DNA of 64,000 nucleotides, taken from assembly GCA_002490835.1 (NCBI GenBank), contig DKUU01000020.1, forward strand, positions 5,696 through 69,695, read 5' to 3'. Under the pieces are notes generated by a model. The model did not search any database. It was not told the origin of the DNA and saw only the letters and a list, made by a program, of their open reading frames with translations. A program made the translations under genes and the position numbers. Positions 34,417 through 51,549 of this stretch are shown here, piece by piece; the first letter of the stretch is position 1; every line of letters begins with the position of its first letter. Origin of the DNA: Lachnospiraceae bacterium UBA7196 (lineage in GTDB: Bacteria > Bacillota > Clostridia > Lachnospirales > Lachnospiraceae).

Positions 34417-36816
34417 ATGGATCCTGCAATGGAGAAAAATGCGTGTGATCGCGGTCATAAGTTTAATAGAGAATGTCTGGTCCTGACGGCCGGGCTTTTG
34501 CTGATGCTTCTGGTCTTATCACGTTATGTTGTGAATGGACAACCGGTGGATATCAGAAGCGACAATGCAAAGACAGAGATCGGACTGCCGCTTAGCGACG
34601 ATGTCGAAATTATGCAGCCGATGATCATCACGGAGGAGATGAACTGGCGGCAGGGGTACTATGCGCTGCGTTTTACGTACTGTGATAAGAACAGTGACGG
34701 GCGGGTCGTTTATACGGTCAGGCAGGGGGAAGCGCTGCAGAAGGGAAGCATTGCACTGTGTGATATCGATGCCGGTGAGTGGACGCGGCTTTCCGGACTT
34801 TCGCCCGGCCGGCTGGAAGCCGGAGAAGCGCTCCTTATGCTTAGCACGGAAGGTGTGGCGCAGGGAGCGCTTGAGATCGGTGCCGGAGAAGATTATTACG
34901 GTTTCGGCATTGCGGAATATAATGGTGTAAAGCAGAGTCTTACGCTGGCACAGGCATATCATTATCATATTGTGGATATGGAGTATCGGATTAGACTGGT
35001 TTGTTATGCCCTCGTTCTGTTGTGTGTCCTGCTGCTTATCTTGTTGGTAAGAGACGGACGGATTGGCGACAAAGGGAAGAGTCTGGCGGCGTTTGGCGTG
35101 ATGACGGTACTGTTTATGGCCGTTATCTATCTGCTGGACAGTTCGATCTACATACAGCCGACTTATGCGGAGGCGGTGACGAATTTCCTTAAATTTGCGC
35201 GGGAAAAGAAATTTATGGATAATTTGCTGGTTACGGACGCGGGTTATCTTCCGCTGCTGCCGCGCCTGATCACTTTGTTTTTTGTGAAAGTCTTACGGGT
35301 ACCGGCCGCATATGCGCTGTATTTAATGCAATTCACGGCTTGTTTATTGTGCAGTATGATCTGGTCGTTTTTTGTACTGTATCCTTTTCACCGGTTCATG
35401 AAGCTGTCCGGCCGGATCCTCTGGTGTATTCTGGTGATGCTGACATGCTTTTACGAGGAGACGCTGTTTTTTACCAATCATGCGTATTGGGGAATCTACT
35501 TTCTGCTCCTGATGATGATTGCCGATCTGAACGTATTTCCGCGGTGGCTCTATGCAGTATTGACAGCTTTTGGAGCGGTGTTTTGTCTTTCTAAGGGCAC
35601 CTATGCCGTTGTACTGCCGCTTGCGGTGCTTGCCATGGTCTTTTTCTATCGGAGCATGGACAGGCGGGAGAAGGTTTTTCTGTGCACGGCGGGAGCGGCT
35701 GCTTTATTGCAGATTTTGTATTCCTTTAGCGGGCAGGGTGACGGGGGCAGCTGGGTCTCTGCTGCGGCAAACGGCGGGATCGCATACTGGATCAGGCTGG
35801 TCTGCAGGGCGTTTGTGGAATTTACCGCCTATTTGCTGCGACCGCTTGGAGGTGCGATAAACCGGATACCTATAGTTATTTTATTGTTAACGCTTGTGGC
35901 GATTGGCTTTCTGGTGGCAGGTTTTACAGGGAAGGTGCTGCTTTCTCTCCTGCGTGGAAAGAAAGTGAGCAGGCCGCAGAGGAATTTCTGGCTCATTGTG
36001 ATGTACCAGATGATCGTGACGGTATTTTTTTTGGTGACTGTTAAGGCGGTTCCGGATTCATGGAAGAATATGGGCTTTATTTCATTTCGACAGATGGGTC
36101 ATAAATATGAGATTTTTTCTTCTATCGGTTTTTATCTGCTGCTGCTGACGGGAAGCGGTTTGCTGCGGCAGGCAGCGGAAACCGGAGCGGCGAATGCAGA
36201 ATCCGCAGCGGGCAACGGGATCTGGCATGGCATATATGAAATCGGTAGTAGGTACGGTATTCTCGCGCTGACGGCAGTTTTTTGCCTGACGCACCCTGTC
36301 ATGCAGCTGACGGGATGGGCGCAGGCAAAAACATCCGATGGGCGGGTTTATGCCGGGGATATCAACGCAGACTGGCAGGCTTGTAAGGATATGATATATC
36401 GCAGCTCCTTTTTTGTTCCGGTTCGGGACGGCAACTGGGGATACAGCCGTAACGCTACGGTTTATCAGGTGGGGGCGGATGTTTATTTTGAGGAGACGTC
36501 CTGCGTTAATCTCGAAGAGAAGATAGCCGGTTACCGGAACACATATGAGATACAGGACGAAGCGACGGCACAGAATCTGATTGGCGTAATGATCGATCGT
36601 CCGGAGCGGATTCCTTATGCAGATTGTCGTATCCGGCTGTTGGATGCGGACGATCAGGTGATTGCAGAGACGGGACAGACAGGCGGCGGCAGATATAAGA
36701 AATGCTATTTCACGTTTGCCGATCCGGTAAGCGGCGTCAAAAAAATGGAATTTGTGGATGCCGACGGGGAACCGGTTTGGTATAAAGATTATATCGCATG
36801 GATCACGGCATGGTAA
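34417..36816 (+). CDS. Large polytopic membrane protein (799 aa), family unknown
   Basis: GAGGAG RBS. N-terminal TM helix, extracytoplasmic domain of about 150 aa, at least 12 TM helices, then a soluble C-terminal domain of about 200 aa. Confidence 0.6.
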   Translation: MDPAMEKNACDRGHKFNRECLVLTAGLLLMLLVLSRYVVNGQPVDIRSDNAKTEIGLPLSDDVEIMQPMIITEEMNWRQGYYALRFTYCDKNSDGRVVYTVRQGEALQKGSIALCDIDAGEWTRLSGLSPGRLEAGEALLMLSTEGVAQGALEIGAGEDYYGFGIAEYNGVKQSLTLAQAYHYHIVDMEYRIRLVCYALVLLCVLLLILLVRDGRIGDKGKSLAAFGVMTVLFMAVIYLLDSSIYIQPTYAEAVTNFLKFAREKKFMDNLLVTDAGYLPLLPRLITLFFVKVLRVPAAYALYLMQFTACLLCSMIWSFFVLYPFHRFMKLSGRILWCILVMLTCFYEETLFFTNHAYWGIYFLLLMMIADLNVFPRWLYAVLTAFGAVFCLSKGTYAVVLPLAVLAMVFFYRSMDRREKVFLCTAGAAALLQILYSFSGQGDGGSWVSAAANGGIAYWIRLVCRAFVEFTAYLLRPLGGAINRIPIVILLLTLVAIGFLVAGFTGKVLLSLLRGKKVSRPQRNFWLIVMYQMIVTVFFLVTVKAVPDSWKNMGFISFRQMGHKYEIFSSIGFYLLLLTGSGLLRQAAETGAANAESAAGNGIWHGIYEIGSRYGILALTAVFCLTHPVMQLTGWAQAKTSDGRVYAGDINADWQACKDMIYRSSFFVPVRDGNWGYSRNATVYQVGADVYFEETSCVNLEEKIAGYRNTYEIQDEATAQNLIGVMIDRPERIPYADCRIRLLDADDQVIAETGQTGGGRYKKCYFTFADPVSGVKKMEFVDADGEPVWYKDYIAWITAW

Positions 36817-36888: not shown

Positions 36889-36917
36889 TTGACATTCAGA
36901 GCCGGTAAGTGTATAAT
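36889..36917 (+). promoter_or_regulatory. Sigma-A-type promoter heading the chemosensory/HD-GYP operon
   Basis: TTGACA (36889-36894), 17-nt spacer, TATAAT (36912-36917). Confidence 0.55.
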
Positions 36918-37021
36918 AAAGCGGAAATTATGTAGTGTCAGATGTTATTTGAAAACATGTTACATAAAACAGGAAAGGGAGGGAGAGGTTTTGCCTGTTT
37001 CAGGGCAGACCCGGCGAGGAG

Positions 37022-38116
37022 ATGAGTGAGAATACGACCAGACAAAAGCTATTGATCGTGGATGACGAAGAAGTCAACAGAACCATACTCAGCCTGATGT
37101 TCGATTCCGATTATGACGTCGTGGAGGCGCAGAACGGGATGGAAGCGATCGACTTCATCGAAAAGGACGACGAGATCGCATTGATCCTGCTGGATGTGAT
37201 CATGCCGGTGATGGACGGTTTCGGCGTGCTTGACTACATGAAGGATAAGGAGCTTTTGGAAAAGATCCCCGTGATTCTGATCACGAGCATGACGCCGCAG
37301 GAGAGCGAGGAGAAGGCTTACGAGTACGGTATCGCGGATGTGATGCATAAGCCTTTTGAATCCGCTATCGTCAAGAGACGCGCGAAGAACATCATCGAAC
37401 TGTATCAGAATAAGAAGAATCTGGAAATTCGCTTAAAAGAGCGTGAGGAGACCATCCGCGAGCAGGAGAAGGCTATCCGCATGAACAACGAGTTCATGAT
37501 CGACGCCCTCGGCTCCGTCGTCGAGTTTAGGAGCGTTGAGACGGGCGACCATGTAAAGCGCATTAAGTACCTGACCAGAATCCTGTTAAAATACCTTGCG
37601 AAATATTTCCCGAAATACGGGCTGACGCCGGTGCAGATCGATCAGATCGCCAGAGCTTCCGCGCTCCATGACGTAGGTAAGATCGGCATTCCGGATTCCA
37701 TCCTCTTAAAGCCCGGAAAATTGACGCCGGATGAGTTTGAGGTGATGAAGACCCACACGACGATCGGCTGTGAGATACTGGAATCCTTCAAGCCGCAGTA
37801 TGAGGACGAATTTTATACCTACTGCTATGAGATCTGCCGCCACCATCACGAGAGAGCGGACGGCAAAGGGTATCCGGATCATCTGGCAGGGGATGAGATT
37901 CCGATCAGCGCGCAGATCGTTTCCATTGCGGACGTATATGAGGCGCTTGTCAGCGAGAGAGTCTATAAAACTGCATACAGCAATTCTGAGGCATATGAAA
38001 TGATCCTGAATGGAGAATGTGGACAGTTTTCGGACGACGTCATTGAGTGCTTTAAGCTTGCGAAAGAGGATTTCTTCAATATTGTGGAAGTGATCAATCT
38101 GTTCAATTTCACTTAA
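37022..38116 (+). CDS. Response regulator with a canonical HD-GYP output domain (RpfG-like)
   Basis: REC motifs LLIVDDEEVNR, ILLDVIMPVMDG and KP. Coiled-coil linker. HD-GYP motifs GDHVKRIKYL, ALHDVGKIGIPD, RHHHERADGKGYPDHL and IADVYEAL. Confidence 0.88.
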   Translation: MSENTTRQKLLIVDDEEVNRTILSLMFDSDYDVVEAQNGMEAIDFIEKDDEIALILLDVIMPVMDGFGVLDYMKDKELLEKIPVILITSMTPQESEEKAYEYGIADVMHKPFESAIVKRRAKNIIELYQNKKNLEIRLKEREETIREQEKAIRMNNEFMIDALGSVVEFRSVETGDHVKRIKYLTRILLKYLAKYFPKYGLTPVQIDQIARASALHDVGKIGIPDSILLKPGKLTPDEFEVMKTHTTIGCEILESFKPQYEDEFYTYCYEICRHHHERADGKGYPDHLAGDEIPISAQIVSIADVYEALVSERVYKTAYSNSEAYEMILNGECGQFSDDVIECFKLAKEDFFNIVEVINLFNFT

Positions 38117-38202
38117 AGGGTATCAGGCGACGAAGACTGTGAAACAGCGTGGTTTTGTTTTACAGTCTTTTTGTCATGACGGAAAGAGTGTGGAGGTAAA
38201 TT

Positions 38203-38580
38203 ATGGACGACAAATTCAGAAAGCAGTTGGAAGAAGGCGGTGCGGACGTGGAGACCACCTTGAAGCGCTTCATGGGAAACGACGCGATCTACCAGAAATT
38301 TCTGGGAAAGTTCCCCGCTGACCCGAACTACGCTAATCTGGGGATTCACATGGAGTCGGGAGCCTTTGAGGAAGCATACAAGTGTGCGCATGCCTTGAAG
38401 GGCGTGGTGGGCAATTTGGGTCTGACGCCGATCTTTAACAAAGTGTCCGATCTGGTAGAGGAGCTGCGCAACAAGGCGGCCGAAGAAGTGGATGCGGCCC
38501 GTGCGAACGAGTTATGGCAGGAGATCAAGGTGGTATATGAAAAATTTATCGCCATTATAAACGAGAACATCCCCCGGTAA
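38203..38580 (+). CDS. Stand-alone histidine phosphotransfer (Hpt) protein
   Basis: 125 aa, with GGAGG RBS. Canonical Hpt motif CAHALKGVVGNLGL. Confidence 0.8.
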   Translation: MDDKFRKQLEEGGADVETTLKRFMGNDAIYQKFLGKFPADPNYANLGIHMESGAFEEAYKCAHALKGVVGNLGLTPIFNKVSDLVEELRNKAAEEVDAARANELWQEIKVVYEKFIAIINENIPR

Positions 38581-38629
38581 TGAGGAATTTTTCGCTTATT
38601 GTCAGAAGATTTTCTGAGAGGAACTTACA

Positions 38630-40081
38630 ATGGAATTTGAATGGTTAAATTCCCGCATTGCGGACGAAACCATGGAACTTGTCCTTCTTTTCAACGAGGA
38701 GGGCAGTATTCTTTATGGCAATCAGGCGGCGGCGGCGAAGCTGGAATACGACGGGGATAAACTGGAAAAATGCAGTATGTCCCAGATCTTCCGGCAGGAC
38801 TTCCCCAATACGCACGACGGGTTTATTACCTTTGTTAAAAAGTGCATGAAGGGCGTCAAAGAGATGACCATGTACCGCAGCAACAATTCCTGTTTCTCGG
38901 TCAATGTCCGCATCTTTCCGGAAGATAAGACAGACGCTTATCTCCTTCTGGCGGAAGACATCTCGGCCCAGAAAAACATGAATATGCGCATCCGCGAACT
39001 CAAGGAGCGGGAGGAAGATAACTACCGTGCCAGAAATGAGTTTACCGCCAATGTGACGCATGAGCTGCGTACGCCGGTCAACGGCATCAAGGGGCATGTG
39101 CTGGAGCTGGTGGAGGAAGTTACGGATCCCGATCAGAAAAAGACGCTGGATATCGTTCTTAGCTGCTGTGACAATATGCTGACGATCATCAATGATATCC
39201 TCGATTTTGCGAAACTGGAATCCGGCAAGTTCGTGATCGATGAAAAACCCTTTGATTTTCAGGAGATGATGGATAAGGTGATCGCCACACACAGTGCGAC
39301 GGTCAATAAAAAAGAGCTGCACATGAGCGTGGACATCGATGAGAAGATTCCGAGAAAGCTGATCGGCGACGAGCTGCGGCTTACGCAGGTTCTTAATAAT
39401 CTTTTATCCAACGCCATAAAATTTACCATGGTTGGATATGTCAATGTGGTAGTTGGGATGACCAGACGGGTCAATGACGAAGTGGAGCTGTTCTTCATGG
39501 TGCGGGACAGCGGCATCGGCATCTCGCAGAAGGAACAGGACAGACTCTTCCAGAGTTTCAGTCAGGTGGACGCTTCCATCACCAGACGCTTCGGCGGCAC
39601 GGGACTGGGCCTTGCGATCACGAAACAATTGGTGGAGCTGATGCACGGCGACATCCATGTGGAGAGCGAGAAGGGGAAAGGAAGCGCCTTTTCTTTCTCG
39701 GTAAAGTTAAAGAGCGAGCAGATCCTCGACGAGGCGCAGAGTCAGGTCTATGTGAACTGGGAAGAATATGTGAAAGAAGGCGAGAACGGGAGCGTCGACC
39801 GCCTGATGCAGTTTGGCGAGGCGGAGAACCGCGAAGAACTCAAGAAACGTATGGATAAGCTGGTACTCTCCATCGAGATGGGCGCATGGGATAAGGCGGA
39901 ACTTCTGGCTTCCACCCTAAAGGCGCTCTTAGAGTCAGCGGGAGACGAGGACTTAAAGCGGCAGGTGCTGAGGATGGAGATGGCGATCCGCAAGTCGAAC
40001 TACGACAAGAGCGTGGAAATGTACGGCAAGCTGAAAGATGCGATCACGGAGCGGGTCGGCGATATCTGGAGCGCGGAGTAG
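38630..40081 (+). CDS. Cytoplasmic PAS histidine kinase with a C-terminal His-less Hpt-like tail
   Basis: No TM segment. PAS-like N-terminus. H-box is VTHELRTPVNGIKGH, N-box is LLSNAIKFT, G-box is GGTGLGLAITKQL. The last 100 aa or so are helical, with ASTLKALLESAG where an Hpt has AHxLKGxxxxxG. Confidence 0.87.
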   Translation: MEFEWLNSRIADETMELVLLFNEEGSILYGNQAAAAKLEYDGDKLEKCSMSQIFRQDFPNTHDGFITFVKKCMKGVKEMTMYRSNNSCFSVNVRIFPEDKTDAYLLLAEDISAQKNMNMRIRELKEREEDNYRARNEFTANVTHELRTPVNGIKGHVLELVEEVTDPDQKKTLDIVLSCCDNMLTIINDILDFAKLESGKFVIDEKPFDFQEMMDKVIATHSATVNKKELHMSVDIDEKIPRKLIGDELRLTQVLNNLLSNAIKFTMVGYVNVVVGMTRRVNDEVELFFMVRDSGIGISQKEQDRLFQSFSQVDASITRRFGGTGLGLAITKQLVELMHGDIHVESEKGKGSAFSFSVKLKSEQILDEAQSQVYVNWEEYVKEGENGSVDRLMQFGEAENREELKKRMDKLVLSIEMGAWDKAELLASTLKALLESAGDEDLKRQVLRMEMAIRKSNYDKSVEMYGKLKDAITERVGDIWSAE

Positions 40082-40103
40082 GCGGAATAAAAGGAGAACT
40101 GTG

Positions 40104-41165
40104 ATGGGGACGGAATATACCAATAAGAAAGCGCCCATGATCCTGATCGTGGACGACATCAGTGTGAATGTGACCATTCTGGAAAATATCCTCACCCACG
40201 AGGGTTATGAGACGATGACTGCCCTGAGTGTTCAGGAAGCGCTTACGCAGATCAAAAAAACGACGCCCGATCTGATCCTTTCCGATCTTTCCATGCCGGA
40301 GATCGACGGGCTGGAATTTTGCAGGATGCTGAAAAGCGATCAGCATACCAGAGACATTCCATTCATCTTTATCACGGTCTTAAACACCAGCAAAGAGAAG
40401 GAAGAGGCCTTTCTGGCGGGGGCGGTGGATTTTATTCCCAAGCCTTTTGATAATGTGGAGGTTCTCATGCGGGTGAGCAACCACTTAAGCATCTATCGAA
40501 TGCGTCAGGAGATGACGGACTATAACCGGATGATGCACAAGATGGTGGAGGAGCAGAAAAATCTCAATGAAAAGATCCATGCAAATGTGCTGCGGGCTCT
40601 TGCCAGACTGATGAAAAAGAAGGATCCCGAAAAGGGGACACACAGGTCGAACGTGGGTTATAACAGCAAGCTTTTGGCGCAGGGGATGCAGTTTTCTCCG
40701 GCTTATGAGGATGAGATCACGGACGAATTTATAGAAGCCATCGGCATCGCGGCCAGACTGCATGACGTAGGCAAATTCGTTCTGGAAGAGGAGCCGCCCA
40801 CAGAGGGTCCGGATCGGGACTATATCAAAAGATGTGTCGAGGAAGGCAGGGGCGTGATAGAAGAATTTGGCACCGAACAGGAAGAGGGCGGCGCGCTGGG
40901 GATGGCAAAGCAGATCGTTGCCTGCTGTTACGCGCACTGGGACGGCACGGGTTATCCGGTGATTTCCGGCGATGAGATCCCGTTGGCAGCGCGGATCGTA
41001 GCAGTAGTGGACGGGTTTGACGAGGCGACTGCGCCGGGAGAGGGGAAAAAGGTTTTATCTGTAGAAGAAGGCGTGGAATATATTACCAAAAATAGCGGCG
41101 TGTTGTACGATCCCGACGTTGTAGCGGTCTTTAAAAAGCTTTTTGGCCGGATGAGAACAAATTGA
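40104..41165 (+). CDS. Response regulator with a degenerate HD-GYP domain
   Basis: Start at ATG 40104, after AAGGAGA. REC motifs ILIVDD, ILSDLSMPEIDG and KP. RLHDVGK is retained, but the HHE(R/K)xDGxGYP motif reads YAHWDGTGYP. Confidence 0.8.
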   Translation: MGTEYTNKKAPMILIVDDISVNVTILENILTHEGYETMTALSVQEALTQIKKTTPDLILSDLSMPEIDGLEFCRMLKSDQHTRDIPFIFITVLNTSKEKEEAFLAGAVDFIPKPFDNVEVLMRVSNHLSIYRMRQEMTDYNRMMHKMVEEQKNLNEKIHANVLRALARLMKKKDPEKGTHRSNVGYNSKLLAQGMQFSPAYEDEITDEFIEAIGIAARLHDVGKFVLEEEPPTEGPDRDYIKRCVEEGRGVIEEFGTEQEEGGALGMAKQIVACCYAHWDGTGYPVISGDEIPLAARIVAVVDGFDEATAPGEGKKVLSVEEGVEYITKNSGVLYDPDVVAVFKKLFGRMRTN

Positions 41166-41220
41166 CTTTTGTTTGATTCTATGGTTTAATTAAAGATGGT
41201 AATTTGGGGAGGCGAAAGAA

Positions 41221-42024
41221 GTGATCACCGACAGTGAATTTAAGCGGATCGTCGGATATGTTCACAAACATTACGGCATCGATCTGAGTCAAAAAAAGGT
41301 TTTGGTGGGCGGAAGACTGGAGAACTATCTGGCCCGCAACGGTTACGCAAATTACGATGAGTTTATGGAGAAGGTGGAGAAGAATCCCAAGGGCAGTGAA
41401 TCCACGGATCTGGTCAACATTCTCACCACCAACCATACATATTTCATGCGCGAGAGCGAACATTTTGATTTCCTGAAGAATGTGGCGCTTCCCTGGGCAA
41501 AGGCCAAGGCCATGAACACGAGGGATTTAAGAGTCTGGTGCGGCGCTTCTTCTACGGGAGAAGAACCATACACGATGGCGATGATCATCAAAGACTTTTT
41601 CGCTATGGAGCGTCCGGCATGGGATACGAGACTGTTGGCGACGGACATCTCCATGCGGGTTTTGGATCATGCGGCGAAGGGCGTGTACCTGCAGGAGCAT
41701 ATCGATCCGCTGCCGGCGTCATGGAAGAAACGCTACTTTAAGCAGCTTAACGAAGAAGAATTCCGGGTAAAGGACGAGTTGAAAAAAGAGGTGATCTTCA
41801 GGCAGTTCAATCTGATGGATCCCATTCCATTTAAAAAGAAGTTTCATATCGTATTTTTAAGGAACGTAATGATTTACTTTCAGGATGATATCAAGTATCC
41901 GCTCATCGAACGGATCTACGATCATATGGAGCCGGGAGGCTATCTTTTCATCGGTCTGACGGAGAGGCTGGACCGCCAGAAAGTAAAGTTTAATTACGTT
42001 CAGCCATCAATCTATAGAAAGTAG
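41221..42024 (+). CDS. cheR: Chemotaxis protein methyltransferase
   Basis: GTG start after GGGGAGG. N-terminal helical domain. SAM-binding motif VWCGASSTGEEPYTMAM, plus FLRNVMIYF. Confidence 0.9.
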   Translation: MITDSEFKRIVGYVHKHYGIDLSQKKVLVGGRLENYLARNGYANYDEFMEKVEKNPKGSESTDLVNILTTNHTYFMRESEHFDFLKNVALPWAKAKAMNTRDLRVWCGASSTGEEPYTMAMIIKDFFAMERPAWDTRLLATDISMRVLDHAAKGVYLQEHIDPLPASWKKRYFKQLNEEEFRVKDELKKEVIFRQFNLMDPIPFKKKFHIVFLRNVMIYFQDDIKYPLIERIYDHMEPGGYLFIGLTERLDRQKVKFNYVQPSIYRK

Positions 42025-42035
42025 GGAATCGGAAT

Positions 42036-43061
42036 ATGATGCCTATCAGAGTATTGGTCGTTGACGATTCGCTGATGTTCCGTAAGCTTCTGGTAAAAGC
42101 TTTGAACGCGGATCCGAATATTGAAGTCGTGGCGGATGTGGAGGATGTCTATCAGGCGCGGGACGCCATTTTGAAATTTAAACCGGATGTAATGACGCTG
42201 GATGTGGAGATGCCGAAGATGAACGGTATCGAGTTTTTGCGGAGGCTGATGCCGCAGTATCCCCTTCCCGTCGTTATGATCAGTTCCTTAAACGATAAGG
42301 TCTTCGATGCGCTGGAGGCGGGTGCAGTCGATTTTGTTAACAAGCCTACGAATTTAAATCAGGCTCAGTTAAACGACTTCCTCTCGCAGGAATTGGCGGC
42401 GAAGGTCAAGATCGCTTCCACCGCAAAGGTCGGAAAGCTGAAACGGGCGGAAGCCACTTCTATCATGGGACATATCAGCGCGGCGGGCGGTAAGGACCGG
42501 ATCGTGGCGATTGGCGCGTCCACAGGAGGCACCGAGGCTATCTTCGAGGTAGTCAAACGCTTTAAGAGAGACATTCCGGGCGTTGTCATCGTACAGCACA
42601 TGCCGCCCGGTTTTACCAAGATGTATGCTGACCGCCTGAATAATTCATGCGAGGTGGCTGTCAAGGAAGCGCAGAGCGGCGACCGTGTCCTGCAGGGACA
42701 GGTGCTGATCGCGCCGGGAGACAGGCAGATGAAGCTTGTCAAAGTAAACGGCGTCTATCAGGTAGAGTGCAGGGGCACCGAGAAGGTGAGCGGACATTGC
42801 CCTTCCGTGGACGTATTGTTTTCCTCGGTGGCGAAGGCGGCCGGGAATAAGGCAGTCGGCGTCATCCTTACAGGTATGGGAGGCGACGGCGCGAAGGGAC
42901 TTTTGGAGATGCGGCAGGCCGGCGCGCTGACGGTAGGACAGGACGAAGCGACCTGCGTCGTCTACGGGATGCCTAAGGTGGCTTTCGACATAGGGGCCGT
43001 ACAGCAGCAAGCGCCGATCACGGCAATCGCAGGGAAGGTTTATAACCTGTTGAGCAAATAG
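42036..43061 (+). CDS. cheB: Chemotaxis response regulator protein-glutamate methylesterase
   Basis: REC motifs IRVLVVDDS and MTLDVEMPKMNG. Esterase motifs GASTGG, IVQHMPPGFT and GMGGDGA. Confidence 0.92.
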   Translation: MMPIRVLVVDDSLMFRKLLVKALNADPNIEVVADVEDVYQARDAILKFKPDVMTLDVEMPKMNGIEFLRRLMPQYPLPVVMISSLNDKVFDALEAGAVDFVNKPTNLNQAQLNDFLSQELAAKVKIASTAKVGKLKRAEATSIMGHISAAGGKDRIVAIGASTGGTEAIFEVVKRFKRDIPGVVIVQHMPPGFTKMYADRLNNSCEVAVKEAQSGDRVLQGQVLIAPGDRQMKLVKVNGVYQVECRGTEKVSGHCPSVDVLFSSVAKAAGNKAVGVILTGMGGDGAKGLLEMRQAGALTVGQDEATCVVYGMPKVAFDIGAVQQQAPITAIAGKVYNLLSK

Positions 43062-43111
43062 ATTTTACAGAGGATTGTAACAGAAAATTAAAAGAAAGGA
43101 GCTGGGCGCAG

Positions 43112-43504
43112 ATGAAGATTTTATTGGCTGAGGACGATTTCGCCAGCCGCAAATTTATGGACAAACAGCTATCGCGCTACGGAGAATGTGACGTGATGGT
43201 GGATGGCGAAGAAGCAGTGGATGCATTTATGATGGCGCTGGAGGATGGAGAGCCTTACGATCTGGCCTGCCTCGACGTGATGATGCCGGTTATGGACGGC
43301 TATCAGGTATTGAAAGCGATCCGCGACATTGAGGCGCAGAAAGGCATTCCCAAGAGCAAGCGCGTCAAGGTGATTATGACCACGGCGTTAAACGATGAGC
43401 GCAATGTCAAGATGGCGTTCGAGCTTGGATGCGAAGCCTATGCCGGGAAACCGATAGATGTGGAAAAGTTTGAAAAGGTTTTAAAGAAGCTGGGGCTGAT
43501 TTAG
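43112..43504 (+). CDS. cheY: Single-domain CheY-like receiver
   Basis: 130 aa. Motifs KILLAEDD, ACLDVMMPVMDG, MTTAL and GKP. Confidence 0.85.
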   Translation: MKILLAEDDFASRKFMDKQLSRYGECDVMVDGEEAVDAFMMALEDGEPYDLACLDVMMPVMDGYQVLKAIRDIEAQKGIPKSKRVKVIMTTALNDERNVKMAFELGCEAYAGKPIDVEKFEKVLKKLGLI

Positions 43505-43529
43505 GAAATCTTTAAGGTTAGGAGGAAGT

Positions 43530-45662
43530 ATGGCAGAAGAATTCAACACAGACAGTATGCTAGACATGTTTTTGTACGAGAGCGGCCAGCTTTTGGAAAA
43601 ACTGGAAGGCATCATATTAGAAAAACAGGATGCAGACTGCTTTGATGATTCCGATATCAATGAGATCTTCCGTGTCATGCACACCATCAAAGGTTCCTCA
43701 GGCGTTTTGATGTATGAGAACATTACCAAGGTAACCCATAAACTGGAAGATGTATTTTACTACCTGAGAGAATCCCATCCGGACGACGTACCGCACATGG
43801 AACTGGTGGAGAAGGTACTTGCCGTGTCAGATTTTGTGACAGGGGAGCTTGACAAACTCAAGAGCGGAGAGACCCCTGATGGTGATGAAAAGCAGCTTGT
43901 AGAGGATTTGGACGAGTTTCTTAGCCGCCTGAAGGGCGAGATCAAGAAACAGGGCATCGAGATGCCGCAGGCGAACAGGCATGTGGAGCCGACGCAGTTC
44001 TACATCACGCCCGTGGCGGGGGATGACAGTCATTTTTATCGGATTTCGATCCATTATCGAAGCGATACGCAGATGAGTAATCTGAGGGCGTATTCGGCTA
44101 CCTATGCCCTGAAAGAGGTGGCGGAGGATCTGCTCTATACGCCGGACGACATTCTTTCCAACGAGGCCAGCGCCGATGTGATTGTAGCCGAAGGCTTTCA
44201 TATGCTGCTGCAGACGAAGAGCTCCAAGGAGGAAGTCATCGCGCTGATCGACAGCTCGGAGGCGGAGGAGATCAATTTCGACGAGCTTACGAAGGAAGAA
44301 TACGGCAACGCACTCGGCGAGTTTGGCAGAGAGGACGCGATGCCGGCCGCGCAGCCTGCAGAGGCGGCCAAGGCGGACGATAAAGAGGCCAAAAAGGAAG
44401 GCCCGAAGCCCGGCGACTATGTGGTCAAGACCAAGGAAGCCGGTAAAGGTAAGACGCTTGCGAAGAACCAGCCGAAGCAGCAGAGCATCATCAGCGTGAA
44501 CGTGGAGAAGATGGATGCGCTGATGGATCTGATCGGTGAGCTCGTTATTGCGGAGGCGGTGGTCTTACAGAACCCCGACCTGAAGGTGCCGGGACTGGAG
44601 CTTTCTAACTTCCAGAAAGCGTCCGGACAGCTCTCCAAGATCACTACGGAGCTGCAGGAAGTCATTATGTCGATGCGCATGATGCCGCTGACCAATGTCT
44701 TCCAGAAGATGAGGAGAATCGTCTTCGACGTGTCCAGAAAGCTTGGCAAGGATATCGAGCTTGAGGTGATCGGTGAGAACACGGAAGTGGATAAAAATAT
44801 CATCGAGCATATCACCGATCCGTTGATGCACCTTGTAAGAAACTCGGTGGATCACGGTATCGAGGAGAATGCGGCGGATCGTACCTCGATCGGCAAGCCG
44901 GCCAAAGGAAAGATTACGCTGGAGGCCAAGAACGAGGGCGGCAAGGTTTATATCAGCGTCAAGGACGACGGCAAGGGCTTAAATAAAGAGAAATTGTACC
45001 AAAAAGCATTGGAGAAGGGCGTCATCGAGAACAAGCCGATGAACGAGTTTTCAGATAAGGAGATTTTCCGTTTTATTACGCTGCCGGGCTTTTCCACCAA
45101 GGAAGAGGTCACGGAGTATTCCGGCAGAGGCGTCGGTATGGACGTGGTGGTCAAGAACATTCAGACCATCAGCGGAAGACTCGATATCTCCAGTGTGGAG
45201 TTTGAAGGATCCGAGATGACTTTGGTGATCCCGCTGACGCTGGCGATCATCAACGGCATCGTTGTACAGGTAGGTAATTCCCCGTTTGTGATTGAGACGG
45301 CTTCGATCAAGGAATTTGTGCGAGTGGGTGAGGATGATCTCATTCATGAACCGAGCGGCGAGGAATATATTGTGTTAAGAGGCGAATGTTATCCTTTTAT
45401 CCGCCTGAACGAAAAGTATGATCTGCCTGATTCGATCAATAAGATCGAAGAGGGAATCATCGTGGTGTTAGAGCATGAAGGCAGTCAGGTATGCGTTCTG
45501 ATCGATAAGCTGCTGCAGGAACAGGAGATCGTGGTCAAACCGATCCCGTCCTATGTCAGAAAGGTCAAAGGTCTTTCGGGCTGTACGCAGTTAGGAGACG
45601 GAAGCATTGCGCTGATCCTTGATATCGCCGGACTGCTGATGCACGACGGAGAAAGGAGATAG
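43530..45662 (+). CDS. cheA: Chemotaxis histidine kinase CheA
   Basis: P1 Hpt domain has FRVMHTIKGSSG. P3 dimerisation domain. P4 has HLVRNSVDHGIE and GRGVGMDVV. P5 is a CheW-like domain. Confidence 0.95.
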   Translation: MAEEFNTDSMLDMFLYESGQLLEKLEGIILEKQDADCFDDSDINEIFRVMHTIKGSSGVLMYENITKVTHKLEDVFYYLRESHPDDVPHMELVEKVLAVSDFVTGELDKLKSGETPDGDEKQLVEDLDEFLSRLKGEIKKQGIEMPQANRHVEPTQFYITPVAGDDSHFYRISIHYRSDTQMSNLRAYSATYALKEVAEDLLYTPDDILSNEASADVIVAEGFHMLLQTKSSKEEVIALIDSSEAEEINFDELTKEEYGNALGEFGREDAMPAAQPAEAAKADDKEAKKEGPKPGDYVVKTKEAGKGKTLAKNQPKQQSIISVNVEKMDALMDLIGELVIAEAVVLQNPDLKVPGLELSNFQKASGQLSKITTELQEVIMSMRMMPLTNVFQKMRRIVFDVSRKLGKDIELEVIGENTEVDKNIIEHITDPLMHLVRNSVDHGIEENAADRTSIGKPAKGKITLEAKNEGGKVYISVKDDGKGLNKEKLYQKALEKGVIENKPMNEFSDKEIFRFITLPGFSTKEEVTEYSGRGVGMDVVVKNIQTISGRLDISSVEFEGSEMTLVIPLTLAIINGIVVQVGNSPFVIETASIKEFVRVGEDDLIHEPSGEEYIVLRGECYPFIRLNEKYDLPDSINKIEEGIIVVLEHEGSQVCVLIDKLLQEQEIVVKPIPSYVRKVKGLSGCTQLGDGSIALILDIAGLLMHDGERR

Positions 45663-45665
45663 TAC

Positions 45666-46208
45666 ATGGCTGAAGAGTTATTGAAAAATGAAGAAACAGA
45701 TGAAATGGATGAGCTGATGGAAGAGGATGATTCTCAAAAAGGGATGTTCATGATATTCCAGATCGGCAAAGAGTTCTTCGGTATCAGCATCAGCTATGTG
45801 AATGAGATCATTGCGATGCAGCCGATCGCGGCGATCCCTGAGGTAGACGACTACATCAAGGGACTGATCAATCTCCGGGGCAAGATCATTCCTGTGATCG
45901 ACGTCCGTACCCGATTTAAGATGGAACCGTGCGAATATACGGACAGGACGTGTATTATTGTCATCGATGTAAAAACGACCATGATCGGTCTGATCGTGGA
46001 GAAATTGGCGGATGTGGATACGATTGCCGAAGACAATATCGCACCGCCGCCGTCTCTTGGAAGGAAAGAGCACGAGCATAACAAATATGTGTACGGGCTG
46101 GCCAGAACAGGAGATACGGTAACGCTGCTTCTCGATCCGGAGAAGCTGATCAAACAGGATGATATCGTGGCTGTGGTAGAAGAAAGCCGTAAGGAAGAAC
46201 AATCATAA
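45666..46208 (+). CDS. cheW: Chemotaxis coupling protein CheW
   Basis: Starts 3 nt after the cheA stop. CheW fold motifs FGISISYVNEI and INLRGKIIPVIDVR. Confidence 0.9.
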   Translation: MAEELLKNEETDEMDELMEEDDSQKGMFMIFQIGKEFFGISISYVNEIIAMQPIAAIPEVDDYIKGLINLRGKIIPVIDVRTRFKMEPCEYTDRTCIIVIDVKTTMIGLIVEKLADVDTIAEDNIAPPPSLGRKEHEHNKYVYGLARTGDTVTLLLDPEKLIKQDDIVAVVEESRKEEQS

Positions 46209-46223
46209 AAAGGAGAGATTACC

Positions 46224-48008
46224 ATGAAGAAGAAATTTTCAATTAGTGACATGACTGTCAAGAACAAAATTACTTTGTTTAGCGTATTGTTGCTGGGTCT
46301 GATGCTCATCATTTCGGCAGTGGGTATCTGGTCCTCCAACATGGTAAACAAGGCGCGGACGAGTCTGAACAACAGCGCACTGGCACAGTATGATGTGACG
46401 CAGGGATTTGCTGATTTTTGTAATATCAAGGTTCGTGTGCGTAACATCCTGTTTGCCTACTACGATGATGCGGATGCGTTAAAGCAGCAGGAGCAGATGA
46501 TTGAGTCCTACAAGACGGATGCGAGAAAGTATCTGGACCTTTTCGAGAACAGAATGGGGAGTTTACCTGTAGAGATCCAGAACCAGTATCAGGAAGTGGA
46601 GGATAAGATCAATTCCTGGTATGAATCCACACAGACAGATATCGATCTGGCGAAAGCCGGCAAGGTGGATGAAGCGATCAACGATCTGATGACCAACGGC
46701 AAGGCGATCGCGGACGATGTGGAGGAGACGCTGACGGAGCTGATCACCGCAATCGAAACAGACACCAAGGCAAAGGAAGTGACGATCCAGCAGCAGCTTA
46801 CCGGACTGACCATCCTGCAGGCGGCAGTTGTGATTCTGGCAGTCCTGATCACCATCATGTACTGTCTGTTCCTGATCAAGGCGATTACCAAGCCGATGGC
46901 GAAGCTGTCCGAGGCGGCTAAGAAGATGACCATGGGCGATATCGATGTAGACTGTGAGAAAATCAACAATGACGATCTGGGCGAGCTGTTAGACGAGTTT
47001 GCACAGATGGCACAGGCGATCAAAGAGCAGACCAAGATCACGGAAGCAATCTCTCACGGCGATCTGACCAGAGAGGCGAAACCGAGAAGCGACAGGGACG
47101 TGCTGGGCAAGGCAATCGTCAGACTGCTTTCCGAGAACAACATGACGCTGAGCAACGTAAAAGAGGCGAGCGCACAGATTACGGTCGGTTCCGAGCAGGT
47201 GGCAAATGCCAGTCAGGCATTGGCGCAGGGTTCTACCGAGCAGGCAAGCGCGATCCAGCAGGTGACCGCTTCTATGGACGAAGTGACACAGCGTACCAAG
47301 GCGAATGCGACGCAGGCAGGCGAGGCAAATGTGCTTGTTAACAATATCAAAGAAATGGCGGCATCCGGCAATGAGCAGATGAAGTCCATGATCGGTGCGA
47401 TGGATGATATCAACGCATCCTCCGAGACGATCTCCAAGATTATTAAGACGATTGACGATATTGCATTCCAGACCAATATTCTGGCTCTGAATGCAGCGGT
47501 TGAGGCAGCGAGAGCAGGCGTACACGGCAAGGGCTTTGCAGTGGTGGCTGAGGAAGTGAGAAGTCTGGCAGCGAAGAGTGCGGCTGCGGCAAGCGAGACG
47601 GCTGAGATGATCGACGATACGATCCATAAAGTCGGCAACGGTACAAGAATCGCGCAGGATACGGCGAAGTCTCTTGACGAGATCGTAACCTCTATCGATG
47701 AGATCGTAGGACTGATCAGCAACATTACCTCTTCTTCCAACGATCAGGCAACGGCGATCTCCCAGATCGATCAGGCGATCTCTCAGGTATCTACCGTGGT
47801 ACAGACCAATGCGGCTACCAGTCAGGAATGTGCGGCGGCCAGCGAAGAGCTGTCGAATCAGGCAATCACTTTGAAGAACCTGATGGCGAAGTACCAGTTG
47901 GCGGCGGATTCTTACAGCAACAGCTTTGTGGCCGACAACAGTATCTCCGCAGCGTCGCATGACGACGAGCCTACGATCTCTTTGGATGGCGATTATGGGA
48001 AATATTAA
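46224..48008 (+). CDS. Methyl-accepting chemotaxis protein
   Basis: TM1, helical sensor of about 160 aa, TM2, HAMP domain. Signalling hairpin has [20 protein letters not shown]. Confidence 0.92.
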
Positions 48009-48054
48009 GAAGCGGCAGAACATAGAAAATAGAGCATGAGAGAGATGTTGGGAC

Positions 48055-48075
48055 GGCGGCTTGATGAAAGCCGCC
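48055..48075 (+). terminator. Hairpin after the MCP gene
   Basis: 8-bp stem GGCGGCTT/AAGCCGCC with a 5-nt loop. The downstream T-tract is weak and not adjacent. Confidence 0.45.
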
Positions 48076-48105
48076 ATCCTTTGCTTATTTTTGCGATAAC
48101 GCCAC

Positions 48106-48134
48106 TTGACATTTTAGAAAAAAGACATTATAAT
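48106..48134 (+). promoter_or_regulatory. Sigma-A-type promoter for tRNA-Arg
   Basis: TTGACA (48106-48111), 17-nt spacer, TATAAT (48129-48134). It ends 19 nt upstream of the tRNA. Confidence 0.6.
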
Positions 48135-48152
48135 AACCATTGTTGTAAAGAT

Positions 48153-48226
48153 GTGCGCTTAGCTCAGCTGGATAGAGCGTTTGGCTACGGACCAAAAGGT
48201 CGGGGGTTCGAATCCTCTAGCGCACG
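48153..48226 (+). tRNA. tRNA-Arg, anticodon ACG
   Basis: Folded by hand. 7-bp acceptor stem GTGCGCT/AGCGCAC. D arm GCTC..GAGC. Anticodon stem TTTGG/CCAAA with loop CTACGGA. T arm GGGGG-TTCGAAT-CCTCT. Discriminator G. No encoded CCA. Confidence 0.9.
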
Positions 48227-48240
48227 GTGATATTTGGAAA

Positions 48241-49311: not shown

Positions 49312-49359
49312 TTGACAAACTGTATATACTGTATATAATGTAATATATACAGTATATAC
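49312..49359 (+). promoter_or_regulatory. Sigma-A-type promoter overlapped by a perfect 16-bp inverted-repeat operator
   Basis: TTGACA (49312-49317), 16-nt spacer, TATAAT (49334-49339). The arms are GTATATACTGTATATA (49322-49337) and TATATACAGTATATAC (49344-49359), with a 6-bp spacer. Confidence 0.65.
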
Positions 49360-49409
49360 TGAAGGCGCTGCCTGTGACGACAGGGAGCGCAAAATAAGGG
49401 AGGCAAGAT

Positions 49410-49781
49410 TTGAAGATCATTATTTCAAACCAGTCGGAGTTGCCGATTTATGCGCAGATCAGAGAGCAGCTCAAGGAACAGATTCTAAACGGACAGATCC
49501 CCGAGGGGGAGACCCTTCCTTCGATCCGCCAATTGGCGAAGGAGATCGGTGTCAGTGTCATCACCACCACCCGCGCGTACAGCGAATTAGAGCAGGAAGG
49601 CTTTATTGCCACTATGCAGGGCAAGGGCAGCGTGGTGCTTGCCACGGACAATTCCCTTCTGCGGGAGCAGTATCTTCTGCGGATCGAGGAGGGGCTGAGC
49701 ACGGCGATTGAGACGGCGAAGGCGATGGGAATGTCCGGGGAGGAACTGCGGGATATCTTTAACAACTTATTGGAAACATAA
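49410..49781 (+). CDS. GntR-family transcriptional regulator, YtrA-like short subfamily
   Basis: TTG start after AAGGGAGG. 123 aa. wHTH has LPSIRQLAKEIGVSVITTTRAYSELEQEGFI. The C-terminal domain is short. Confidence 0.88.
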   Translation: MKIIISNQSELPIYAQIREQLKEQILNGQIPEGETLPSIRQLAKEIGVSVITTTRAYSELEQEGFIATMQGKGSVVLATDNSLLREQYLLRIEEGLSTAIETAKAMGMSGEELRDIFNNLLET

Positions 49782-49834
49782 GGAAAGAGAAAACCGCTGC
49801 GAATTTCGGAGAGAAGTCAGGAGGGAAGAAGAAT

Positions 49835-50683
49835 ATGGAACTATTGGAAGTAAAAAATCTGTCGAAACAATATAAAAATTTTTCTTTACAGAATATCAGC
49901 TTTACCCTGCCCAAGGGCTATATCATGGGCTATGTAGGAGCCAACGGTTCGGGAAAGACCACGACCTTAAACCTGATCACGGGCCTCCAGAAAGCAAACG
50001 GGGGAGAAGTATTTATCGACGGGCTTTCCCGCGAGGAGGACGAGCGGGCATATAAGGAGAAAATCGGCTTTGTGGGGGACGACTGCTATTTTCCCGGCGA
50101 TTTTAAGATCAAACATATCCGCCGCGCACTGCAGGACTTTTATCCGACCTTTTCCAGAGAGAAATTTGACGGATTTATCCGTGACTGGAAGCTGCCGGAG
50201 AATAAAGCGACCAAGGATTTTTCCAGAGGCATGAAGGTTCTGTTGATGTTTGCGTCGGTGTTTGCCAGACAGACGAAACTCCTGGTGTTAGACGAGGCGA
50301 CGAATGGCCTTGATCCGGTGATGCGGGCGGATGTGGTGAAACTGTTGCAGGAATATGTGATGGACGGGGAGCGGAGCGTGATCTTCTCTACCCATATCTT
50401 GAGCGACTTGGAGCAGATCGCGGACTATATCTATTTTATTCACGAAGGCAGGACGGTCCTCTACGAGGCGAAGGATGAGCTGATCGAGAGTTTCCTGCTG
50501 GTAAAGGGCGAGACCGCGAAGATTCCGCCGGCACTGAAAAAGGAGCTGATCGGGGTGGATGAGAATGCCTACGGTTTTGAGGCGATCCTGCCCAGCGATA
50601 AGGCGGGGCTTTTAGGGAATGCGTTCCTTTATGAAAAGCCGACCATCGATCAGATTGTGATACACTATATCAAAAGTGCCTGA
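49835..50683 (+). CDS. ABC transporter ATP-binding protein
   Basis: Walker A GANGSGKTT, signature FSRGMKVLL, Walker B LLVLDEATNGLD, H-loop STHIL. Confidence 0.9.
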   Translation: MELLEVKNLSKQYKNFSLQNISFTLPKGYIMGYVGANGSGKTTTLNLITGLQKANGGEVFIDGLSREEDERAYKEKIGFVGDDCYFPGDFKIKHIRRALQDFYPTFSREKFDGFIRDWKLPENKATKDFSRGMKVLLMFASVFARQTKLLVLDEATNGLDPVMRADVVKLLQEYVMDGERSVIFSTHILSDLEQIADYIYFIHEGRTVLYEAKDELIESFLLVKGETAKIPPALKKELIGVDENAYGFEAILPSDKAGLLGNAFLYEKPTIDQIVIHYIKSA

Positions 50684-50862
50684 TGAGTGATATAATATTC
50701 GCGATGGCAATGAGCAGTGCACAGACGTAAGATGAAAAAATGGCAGCTTGCTGACAATTTTTTCAGATTGCGGATGTATAGGGCGAAGCCCGCGAGCGAG
50801 GAAAACCGTAGGTTTTTCGAGCGTATACTGCGGAGATGATATAATAAAAAGGAGAAACCAAG

Positions 50863-51549
50863 ATGAGAGCATTATATTATACGAAGATAGACTATATGTT
50901 GACGAGAAAGCAACTGCGTATCCTGCCGCTCTTTTTCCTGTTGGCGCTGCTGATGGGCAGAAATGCGGGTGTAGGAGACATGTCCCTGCCGGTGGCGTGT
51001 GCCTATGTGCTGTTTATATCATCCATTTTTTCAACGGCGCCGTTTGCGTACTCCGGCGGGAAAAACAGGGGCTTTCTGCTGCTGTTTCCAGCGACAGTAA
51101 CAGACAGGGTGGCGGGACGGTTTCTGTTCGGTTTGTCATTTATAGGGCTGCTGGGACTGTGCTGCGGCGCGATTTTTGGTGTCTGCGGGATGATGGGAGT
51201 GGAGATTCCACGCTGGACGATTGGCGTGGGGTTGTGCGAACTGGCGGTCGGGATCGTGCTGGTAACGCTGCAGAACCTGTTTTTCTTTCTGTTCGGAGAA
51301 GGAAAAGATAACTGGCAGTACCTCAATAATCTCGTGAGAACGCTGCCGGGGATCGTGATGTTTTTTGGGGCGAGTAGTATGGCAGGGATAGTGCAGGATG
51401 AGGTAGCCGCCGGCACGCTGCCGGATCTGGAAACCGTGTCCGGAATGCTGATGCAGGCGGGCGTACTTTCCATGGCGGCGGCGCTGCTTTTGACGGTGAT
51501 TGCGGCGGCGGTCTGCGCGAAGGTGATCGGCAAGCGGGATTATGCGTGA
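50863..51549 (+). CDS. Membrane protein, putative permease partner of the YtrA-type ABC module
   Basis: About 6 TM helices, with operon context. No motif recognised. There is a 179-nt gap after the ATPase gene. Confidence 0.6.
   Translation: MRALYYTKIDYMLTRKQLRILPLFFLLALLMGRNAGVGDMSLPVACAYVLFISSIFSTAPFAYSGGKNRGFLLLFPATVTDRVAGRFLFGLSFIGLLGLCCGAIFGVCGMMGVEIPRWTIGVGLCELAVGIVLVTLQNLFFFLFGEGKDNWQYLNNLVRTLPGIVMFFGASSMAGIVQDEVAAGTLPDLETVSGMLMQAGVLSMAAALLLTVIAAAVCAKVIGKRDYA

Follow-up and report, generated by a model that had tools for sequence, protein, structure and literature searches.

In Xanthomonas, the hybrid kinase RpfC, which joins a histidine kinase (HK) core to a receiver (REC) and a histidine phosphotransfer (Hpt) domain, feeds the REC-HD-GYP regulator RpfG (PMC3749722, PMC4504480). 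In Shewanella and Vibrio, one kinase (HnoK) is combined with an active cyclic di-GMP (c-di-GMP) phosphodiesterase regulator (HnoB) and a degenerate REC-HD-GYP protein (HnoD) that inhibits this enzyme (bioRxiv 10.1101/2021.11.05.467447, PMC6335343). HD-GYP proteins are the predominant c-di-GMP hydrolases in Clostridia, and inactive members of the RpfG family work via protein contacts (bioRxiv 10.1101/2021.11.05.467447). In the Wsp pathway of Pseudomonas, which is of the ACF class, the CheA-like kinase WspE phosphorylates the REC-GGDEF cyclase WspR, and the c-di-GMP-modulating chemosensory systems known in a 2022 census are of the ACF (Wsp) or Tfp class (PMC8846402). Che3 clusters contain an extra sensor kinase, as in CheS3/CheA3/CheY3 of Rhodospirillum centenum (PMC3868531) and Che3 with CrdS/CrdA of Myxococcus xanthus (PMC3147164), and experiments on them show that che clusters and classical kinases can share phosphate flow (PMC3868531, PMC3147164). 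The window examined here, a stretch of 64,000 nucleotides (64 kb) from Lachnospiraceae bacterium UBA7196 (contig DKUU01000020.1, positions 5,696 to 69,695), contains an operon of ten co-directional genes at 37022-48008, which combines six chemosensory proteins with a PAS kinase, a stand-alone Hpt protein and two REC-HD-GYP proteins, one intact and one degenerate. We propose, from sequence comparison, that this operon encodes two modules that share one promoter and are wired separately, a split RpfC/RpfG-like relay and a CheA-CheY/CheB pathway, and give this proposal about an even chance of being correct. No characterised chemosensory pathway that acts through an Hpt protein or an HD-GYP enzyme was found in a full-text literature search, in agreement with a first-pass annotation of the window, which knew of no Che-to-Hpt-to-HD-GYP relay.

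In the first module, the soluble PAS kinase would autophosphorylate on His144, and the phosphoryl group would be transferred to the receiver of the adjacent degenerate REC-HD-GYP protein, which appears to have lost catalysis and kept its receiver. The free Hpt protein would then take the phosphoryl group on His63 and transfer it to the receiver of the intact REC-HD-GYP protein, such that the phosphodiesterase activity of this protein is turned on. This module would be the RpfC/RpfG scheme with the hybrid kinase split into separate proteins. The degenerate HD-GYP domain, in which GYP is kept, may also serve as an HnoD-like protein-protein regulator. In the second module, which consists of a chemoreceptor (MCP), CheW, CheA, CheY, CheB and CheR, CheA would phosphorylate CheY and CheB. 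Through co-transcription, the expression of this sensory pathway would be tied to a switch whose lowering of c-di-GMP would favour motility. Gene content and synteny, the motifs, their conservation and the receiver signatures are observed in the sequences, and from these we infer all phosphotransfer steps, the enzyme activity and the physiological output. The proposed relay shares with RpfC/RpfG the four-step His-Asp-His-Asp logic that ends on a REC-HD-GYP protein, and the kinase core is of the same hybrid-kinase type (BarA/ArcB-like). It differs from RpfC/RpfG in that the phospho-sites are located on four separate proteins, with the first receiver on the degenerate HD-GYP protein, that the kinase is soluble, with PAS input and only a His-less four-helix tail, and that the host is a Gram-positive gut anaerobe, in which the module is fused to a che operon. 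As in Wsp, the genes of a chemoreceptor pathway stand together with one for a c-di-GMP enzyme that bears a receiver. However, the Wsp kinase bears its own receiver and phosphorylates the enzyme directly, whereas CheA of the window has P2 and no REC. The window also adds a second dedicated kinase and an Hpt protein, its enzyme is predicted to degrade c-di-GMP while that of Wsp makes it, and its receiver signatures argue against CheA as the donor of the HD-GYP proteins. As in Che3, a che cluster is combined with a second histidine kinase (PAS-type or orphan) and a non-motility output regulator. In contrast, the outputs of Che3 systems are cyst formation or gene expression via other regulators, with neither Hpt nor HD-GYP, and Che3 CheA proteins are hybrid or act as phosphatases.

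The ten open reading frames (ORFs) are numbered here in their order along the + strand, so that gene 1 encodes the intact and gene 4 the degenerate REC-HD-GYP protein. They are located at 37022-38116 (Pfam REC and HD_5), 38203-38580 (Hpt), 38630-40081 (PAS_9, HisKA and HATPase_c), 40038/40104-41165 (REC and a weak HD_5), 41221-42024 (CheR_N and CheR), 42036-43061 (REC and CheB_methylest), 43112-43504 (REC), 43530-45662 (Hpt, P2, H-kinase_dim, HATPase_c and CheW), 45666-46208 (CheW) and 46224-48008 (4HB_MCP, HAMP and MCPsignal). The start of gene 4 is 40104, which agrees with orthologues and public gene calls, and not 40038. With this start, the intergenic gaps are 86, 49, 22, 55, 11, 50, 25, 3 and 15 nt, and a GGAGG-type ribosome-binding site is located ahead of all ten start codons. 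The ORF list and the Pfam matches bear out the ten co-directional genes, the domains, the gene order and the gaps of 3-86 nt described in the first-pass annotation.

The operon was compared with 49 Lachnospiraceae genome loci and 80 metagenome loci. The genome scan used one genome per species with the gene-4 alignment as query, and neighbours within 10 kb on either side of the matches were assigned by BLAST against the window proteins. A sigma-A/sigma-70-type promoter, TTGACA-N17-TATAAT, is located at 36889-36917 of the + strand, about 105 nt 5' of gene 1, and matches the consensus at 12/12 positions. Both of its hexamers are retained, at a variable distance from each other, in 25 of the 28 copies compared (those of the window and of 27 related loci). 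In 24 of the 27 loci, the same TTGACA-N17-TATAAT, with a spacer that varies, is found 120-140 nt upstream of the gene-1 orthologue, and one further locus, in which this orthologue is relocated, has the promoter 96 nt upstream with an 18-nt spacer. The consensus promoter moves together with the intact HD-GYP gene, and is also present at the new place of this gene in L032. An intrinsic-terminator-like hairpin follows the MCP gene on the + strand (stem 48050-48080, then a T-rich tract to 48093; -24.2 kcal/mol, z = -4.05), and none of 200 shuffles folds as well. Both the front promoter and the first hairpin after the MCP gene agree with the first-pass annotation, which would have been refuted, in its own terms, by internal promoters or terminators that split the operon. 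Such elements are rejected. No terminator-like match is present in the intergenic gaps, the weak intragenic consensus matches are at chance level, and the sole strong terminator is that after the MCP gene. In the window, no site ahead of the kinase gene matches the promoter consensus at more than 8/12 positions, whereas loci with the kinase as the first gene have strong promoters before it (10-12/12). A single conserved transcription unit from 36889 is supported by this comparison. A riboswitch or another leader element in the 5' untranslated region is rejected, because the leader of about 105 nt has no Rfam match, even at E <= 1, and folds no better than shuffles (z = -0.08).

The kinase encoded by gene 3 consists of 483 amino acids (aa), and its H-box His144 (H1) is invariant. 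Its best NCBIfam matches are the hybrid kinases BarA (283 bits), TorS, LuxQ, LetS, RcsC and ArcB, all of which act through Hpt domains. Pfam detects no REC domain in the kinase, and its tail is without His, so that it is neither a hybrid nor an unorthodox kinase. The relay is favoured because the kinase core resembles those of Hpt users such as BarA, TorS, LuxQ and ArcB, yet the kinase lacks REC. The view of the first-pass annotation that a free Hpt beside a non-hybrid kinase implies a separate intermediate receiver is borne out by this lack. All parts of a multistep phosphorelay are present, namely His144, two intact receiver Asp pockets and His63 of the Hpt protein. The kinase tail of about 100 residues after the catalytic domain is kept in 48 orthologues with the pattern W-KAE-LA-T-K-L, also in a sister clade without an Hpt gene. 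The AlphaFold2 model of the tail alone is a four-helix bundle (residues about 398-476; about 39821-40057 of the + strand; pLDDT 89.9). The tail is rejected as a bona fide Hpt domain. His is absent at the Hpt-aligned position in all 48 orthologues, and the PDB contains no sequence match. A profile-profile alignment falls on the Hpt His helix with a probability of 5.8%. The best natural Foldseek matches are plant, fungal and bacterial Hpt proteins, but they are weak (E >= 0.047), with generic four-helix bundles interleaved and none at E <= 0.001. The tail is plausible as a His-less Hpt remnant, or it may be a docking domain.

Gene 1 encodes a REC-HD-GYP response regulator of the RpfG family (Pfam REC 71 bits, HD_5 96 bits). 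Its motifs ExxxH, HD..K, H, HHE, DGxGYP and D are invariant in 28/28 copies, and every catalytic or metal-binding motif position is canonical. The protein is predicted to be a c-di-GMP phosphodiesterase and the terminal acceptor (D2) of the relay. Gene 4 encodes a REC-HD-GYP response regulator with a high score for REC (96 bits) and just 50 bits for HD_5. HHE is replaced by CYA in the window (HHA in most relatives) and the His after HD by Cys; the conserved K and the last D are variable, and HD and GYP are retained. The term degenerate, used in the first-pass annotation, is correct. No orthologue of the window-type clade (L011-L047, L059) has all catalytic positions unaltered, the changes differ between species, and the RpfG-family catalytic motif set is incomplete. 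In contrast, the receiver residues DD/D/T/K are invariant in 49 orthologues. Gene 4 shares this combination of an intact receiver and altered HD-GYP motifs with the HnoD-like class, and its product is predicted to be an intermediate receiver (D1) and/or an HnoD-like regulator. Among close relatives, the receiver of gene 4 is 83-95% identical and its HD-GYP domain only 49-76%, whereas the HD-GYP domain of gene 1 is 89-96% identical and at least as conserved as its own receiver. The relay is also favoured by these opposite patterns. The counterpart of gene 4 in the sister clade keeps HD, K, H, HHE, GYP and D. The simplest history would be that a plain kinase/REC-HD-GYP pair existed first, that the intact HD-GYP/Hpt unit was added, and that the old regulator then lost catalysis and kept a receiver-centred function.

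The Hpt protein encoded by gene 2 (38203-38580) consists of 125 aa, with His63 in AHALKG. Its single-sequence Pfam score of 21.3 bits is under the cut-off of 24.6 bits. However, H63, K66 and G67 of the motif AH-x-LKG are invariant, and its profile matches CheA P1 (8e-4), HPt proteins (0.014), YojN and YPD1 in the PDB, as would be expected of a four-helix bundle with an H-x-x-K-G His. His63 is predicted to be H2 of the relay. A homologue search of a large protein set gives 191 close relatives and no distant ones, and the distant relatives come from a metagenome scan with the Hpt alignment, which detects window-type operons and relatives at 34-50% identity. Many of the distant relatives directly follow genes for REC-HD-GYP, GGDEF-REC-HD-GYP, REC-HD-GYP-GGDEF or REC-GGDEF-EAL proteins, and they also adjoin hybrid HK-REC kinases, not che genes. 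In L136 (6311-10327), dCache-HK-REC, REC-HD-GYP and Hpt genes stand in a row. Because its neighbours are REC-fused c-di-GMP enzymes and HK-REC hybrid kinases, the family supplies, to judge from this context, the middle His in relays whose final acceptor is a c-di-GMP enzyme, with the first receiver normally supplied by a hybrid kinase. The pair of an Hpt gene and a c-di-GMP-enzyme gene is recurrent in gut metagenomes (L099-L170; for example, L118:5655-10240 and L154:7923-10312), and looks like a widespread Clostridial Hpt-to-c-di-GMP relay design.

The layout of the operon is strongly conserved, in dozens of related species, and one orthologue cluster is present on at least 1000 metagenome contigs. 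The PAS kinase gene is located directly upstream of the gene-4 orthologue in 49/49 genome loci. This pair is followed by CheR-CheB-CheY-CheA-CheW-MCP in 32 loci and preceded by CheR-CheB-CheY-CheW, without CheA, MCP and Hpt, in nine (the sister clade, 40-43% identity); it has no che genes in seven, and one is uninformative. The pair is thus next to che genes in 41 of the 48 informative loci, which show two gene orders and span about 40-95% protein identity. The intact REC-HD-GYP and Hpt genes are located directly upstream of the pair in 23 loci, and elsewhere after the MCP gene (L032, L041, L046), after gene 4 (L037, L044) or not at all. The Hpt gene accompanies the kinase pair in 30/30 loci, usually with the intact REC-HD-GYP gene. 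Among them are L037, where the genes for the kinase, the gene-4 orthologue, the intact HD-GYP protein and Hpt form a compact operon without che genes, and L044, in which Hpt stands with the kinase pair alone and no che genes are within reach. The relay is favoured because Hpt accompanies the pair even at these two che-less loci. Che operons without Hpt are found in L030, L031, L040, L042, L043, L059 and clade A. The first-pass annotation had named a lack of conservation of HD-GYP/Hpt beside che genes in relatives as a refutation; Hpt is without che genes in L037 and L044, and many che loci lack Hpt. In the sister operon (L048-L050, L053-L058; for example, L053:5673-11089), the order is CheR-CheB-CheY-CheW-PAS kinase-REC-HD-GYP with intact HD-GYP motifs. 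CheW abuts the PAS kinase gene there, and the flanks are unrelated (DJ-1 upstream; tig, clpP and clpX downstream).

The first helix of the receivers suggests which of them feeds the Hpt protein. Every Hpt-adjacent terminal receiver examined, whether of hybrid kinases or of c-di-GMP enzymes, has DDxxxN in this helix. Asn at this position is typical of Hpt-partner receivers, such as those of SLN1, ArcB, RcsC and EvgS. The corresponding residues are DDEEVN in gene 1, DDISVN in gene 4 and DDVEVN in the regulator of the sister clade. In contrast, CheY (EDDFASRK) and CheB (DDSLMFRK) are both without the signature Asn; they are of the CheA-partner type in this helix, in which they resemble E. coli CheY (DDFSTMRR) and CheB. 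The relay is favoured because the signature is present in both HD-GYP receivers and missing from CheY and CheB. CheA contains P2 and lacks a C-terminal receiver, and ACF and Tfp CheA kinases usually have a C-terminal receiver and no P2 (PMC10782961). This architecture suggests that CheA is wired to CheY and CheB rather than in an ACF/Wsp-type manner.

Several points weigh against the proposed relay. The loci are phylogenetically related, so that the counts are not independent, and all phosphotransfer steps are predictions from sequence comparison. The helix-1 signature is a correlate of partner class and not a proof of specificity, and the overall similarity of CheY, which is higher to SLN1-type receivers (5e-12) than to E. 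coli CheY (2e-9), points weakly in the opposite direction, with mixed NCBIfam matches. The Hpt gene ends the che operon in L046 and L141 with no intact HD-GYP gene nearby, which suits a che-related role equally well, and co-expression alone may not account for the tight linkage of the kinase pair to che genes in two gene orders. H, HD and GYP are still present in the degenerate domain, which is therefore not simply decaying. The sister clade (L048-L058) pairs the same kinase and tail with an apparently active REC-HD-GYP protein and has no Hpt. The kinase can therefore work in a plain two-component system, and in the window it may phosphorylate the two regulators directly.

This last point leads to a branched system like HnoK/HnoB/HnoD, in which phosphate would pass straight from the PAS kinase to each REC-HD-GYP protein. 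The degenerate protein would then only inhibit or partner, depending on its phosphorylation, the active enzyme or, via its GYP motif, GGDEF cyclases, while the Hpt protein would bring in signals from hybrid kinases encoded at other places in the genome, and the Che pathway would be separate. We consider this system unlikely, though the main alternative. The plain pair of the sister clade and the HD and GYP motifs retained in the degenerate protein agree with it, as does the habit of the Hpt family to partner receiver-bearing hybrid kinases, and GGDEF genes are present on the flanks of the module in the window and in L037 and L038, a c-di-GMP context that agrees with the relay as well. Degenerate RpfG-family modulators of another phosphodiesterase are documented by HnoD (bioRxiv 10.1101/2021.11.05.467447). 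That system, like the window, combines a single kinase with both an active phosphodiesterase regulator and a degenerate REC-HD-GYP protein whose receiver is intact; however, the active enzyme of the window is HD-GYP instead of EAL, and the window has a free Hpt protein and no H-NOX partner. The branched system does not explain why Hpt stands with a non-hybrid kinase pair in 30/30 loci, with no adjacent hybrid kinase in L037 and L044. The output domain of gene 4 also evolves much faster than its receiver, which suits a receiver-centred role better than one in which the HD-GYP domain binds a partner.

The proteins of the second module all have Pfam matches well above the cut-offs, and the catalytic Ser, His and Asp motifs of CheB and the P1 His of CheA are readable in the translations. 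The CheR methyltransferase (41221-42024) scores 188 bits for CheR and 45 bits for CheR_N and has PDB CheR matches at E of about 1e-35; it is equidistant from the E. coli and T. maritima proteins. The CheB methylesterase with receiver (42036-43061) scores 211 bits for CheB_methylest and 393 bits for NCBIfam CheB, above the cut-off. The CheY-like protein (43112-43504), a single receiver domain of 130 aa, is the most conserved of the cluster, with 94-100% identity across species as compared with 78-98% for CheA. The CheA kinase (43530-45662) has P1(Hpt)-P2-P3-P4-P5 architecture, and Pfam finds no C-terminal receiver on it. It matches E. coli CheA at 4e-97 and T. maritima CheA at 2e-84 in the PDB, and CheW (45666-46208; 123 bits) matches the two respective proteins at 1.4e-23 and 4e-9. 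The MCP (46224-48008) is a transmembrane receptor with a 4HB sensor, HAMP and a signalling domain. Its residues 276-571 (9-304 of the cytoplasmic part) align with Tsr 232-529 at E 5e-45, with a sole gap of 2 residues in the HAMP region, whereas the cytoplasmic part matches TM1143 (44H) at only 2e-17. The MCP is, by this alignment, of the E. coli-like 36H length class, because the Tsr alignment has just the one HAMP gap and TM1143 matches far worse. The tail ISLDG(D/E)(F/Y)xKY, which follows a variable linker, is kept in all 27 orthologues, and resembles a CheR/CheB-tethering pentapeptide.

Receptors of the 36H class accompany F7 systems, the ancestral output of which is unknown (PMC7184735). 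Although they come from a Firmicute, the array proteins appear closer to those of E. coli (F7) than to the F1-type ones of Bacillus and Thermotoga. They share with F7 systems (E. coli Che; Che2/Aer2 of Pseudomonas and Vibrio; PMC7184735) the Tsr-like signalling domain without gaps, the conserved aromatic MCP tail, and CheW and CheA closer to E. coli than to Thermotoga proteins. They differ in the Lachnospiraceae host, in gene order, in the lack of CheZ, CheD and STAS/phosphatase genes, and in a P2 domain that fits the Thermotoga/Bacillus-type Pfam model. As to the CheA/CheW/MCP class, for which the first-pass annotation had named F-class or ACF, only the MCP is placed by alignment, as 36H, and the ACF/Wsp-type architecture of CheA, with a C-terminal receiver and without P2, is not found.

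Physical or chemical coupling between the chemoreceptor array and the PAS kinase is distinctly unlikely in our estimation. In one form of coupling, CheA and CheY would feed the free Hpt protein, so that chemoeffectors set c-di-GMP hydrolysis. In another form, suggested by the sister operon without CheA and MCP, the PAS kinase would itself stand in for CheA and connect to the proteins of chemotaxis adaptation and output (CheW, CheY and CheB). The tight linkage of the kinase pair to che genes and this CheA-less operon leave some room for coupling. The specific model of the first-pass annotation, in which CheA and/or the PAS kinase phosphorylate the CheY-like receiver, which then feeds the Hpt protein and through it the REC-HD-GYP enzyme, such that the array drives nucleotide degradation, is very unlikely. 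In its favour, all its parts are in one operon, and che genes adjoin the kinase pair at 41 of 48 loci. The closest solved relatives of CheY by sequence are receivers of SLN1-type hybrid kinases, which act on Hpt proteins, and Hpt is located at the che operon end, away from an intact HD-GYP gene, in L046 and L141; the literature search found no characterised Che-to-HD-GYP system. However, helix 1 of CheY lacks DDxxxN, as in CheY proteins that partner CheA, and Hpt accompanies the kinase pair in all 30 loci, including those without che genes. As an input to the HD-GYP proteins, the array is disfavoured by the many che loci without Hpt, by distant Hpt relatives that are not che-associated and by CheA with P2 and without REC, which is the motility-class architecture (PMC10782961). 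A CheY-to-Hpt relay is disfavoured by these signatures and neighbourhoods, with cross-talk possible, and the Che-to-Hpt-to-HD-GYP relay is the least supported of the live options. Co-location without functional coupling, in which a motility chemotaxis operon and an unrelated c-di-GMP two-component module were fused into one transcript in this lineage, fits an HD-GYP/Hpt pair that is movable with its own promoter (after MCP in L032, after the kinase pair in L037), the seven loci with the kinase pair but no che genes and the insulated wiring suggested by the receiver signatures, but is the least probable reading, because the kinase pair stays by che genes (41/48, two orders, about 40-95% identity) beyond chance adjacency and the internal promoter before the kinase is lost in the window-type arrangement.

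The rest of the window encodes housekeeping and signalling proteins. No flagellar gene is present within the 64 kb, as the first-pass annotation had noted, and no recurrent flagellar family is among the 25 commonest Pfam families of the 127 flanking ORFs of 18 related loci. A FapA gene is located upstream of the operon in L059 only. The 799-aa ORF at 34417-36816, which has no Pfam match and lies just 5' of the operon, is syntenic in close relatives, and its product bears no relation to the FapA protein that occupies the corresponding position in L059. Flagellar linkage is rejected on these grounds. A HAMP-GGDEF cyclase gene (32212-34113, minus strand) is also syntenic in close relatives. Other nucleotide-signalling genes encode a CHASE2-adenylate/guanylate cyclase (2891-4729), which is preceded by ORFs 90-1301 and 1305-2855 without Pfam match, and a GAF-HD-GYP protein (5568-7043). 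Directly past the operon terminator, in the region 48106-48227, is a tRNA-Arg(ACG) gene with its own 12/12 promoter at 48106-48134. A third perfect consensus promoter (49312-49339) is located ahead of a gene for a GntR-family regulator (49410-49781), which is followed by an ABC transporter ATPase gene (49835-50683) and a permease-like gene (region 49312-51549). Two paralogous ATPase_2/DUF234 genes are present in the window, at 7062-8489 (- strand) and 30805-32223 (+ strand). GC skew is positive in every 2-kb bin of 1-64000 and nearly all genes are on the + strand, in agreement with a leading-strand segment. At 30-32 kb and 48-50 kb, the GC content falls to 42-44%.

All parts of the operon belong to known families, and their arrangement is a new variation on known designs. 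It represents a natural case in which a hybrid-kinase phosphorelay would have been dismantled into four genes, with a former enzyme apparently recruited as phospho-intermediate, next to an E. coli-like (36H) set of receptor, CheW and CheA in a Firmicute. Lachnospiraceae are among the most abundant gut commensals, and their flagellins are major immune antigens. To our knowledge, the decision between swimming and settling has barely been studied in this family. The operon provides a testable circuit that would link a chemoreceptor pathway to a c-di-GMP-degrading switch, and, if both halves exchange phosphate, it would be the first known chemosensory pathway that acts via an Hpt protein and an HD-GYP enzyme.

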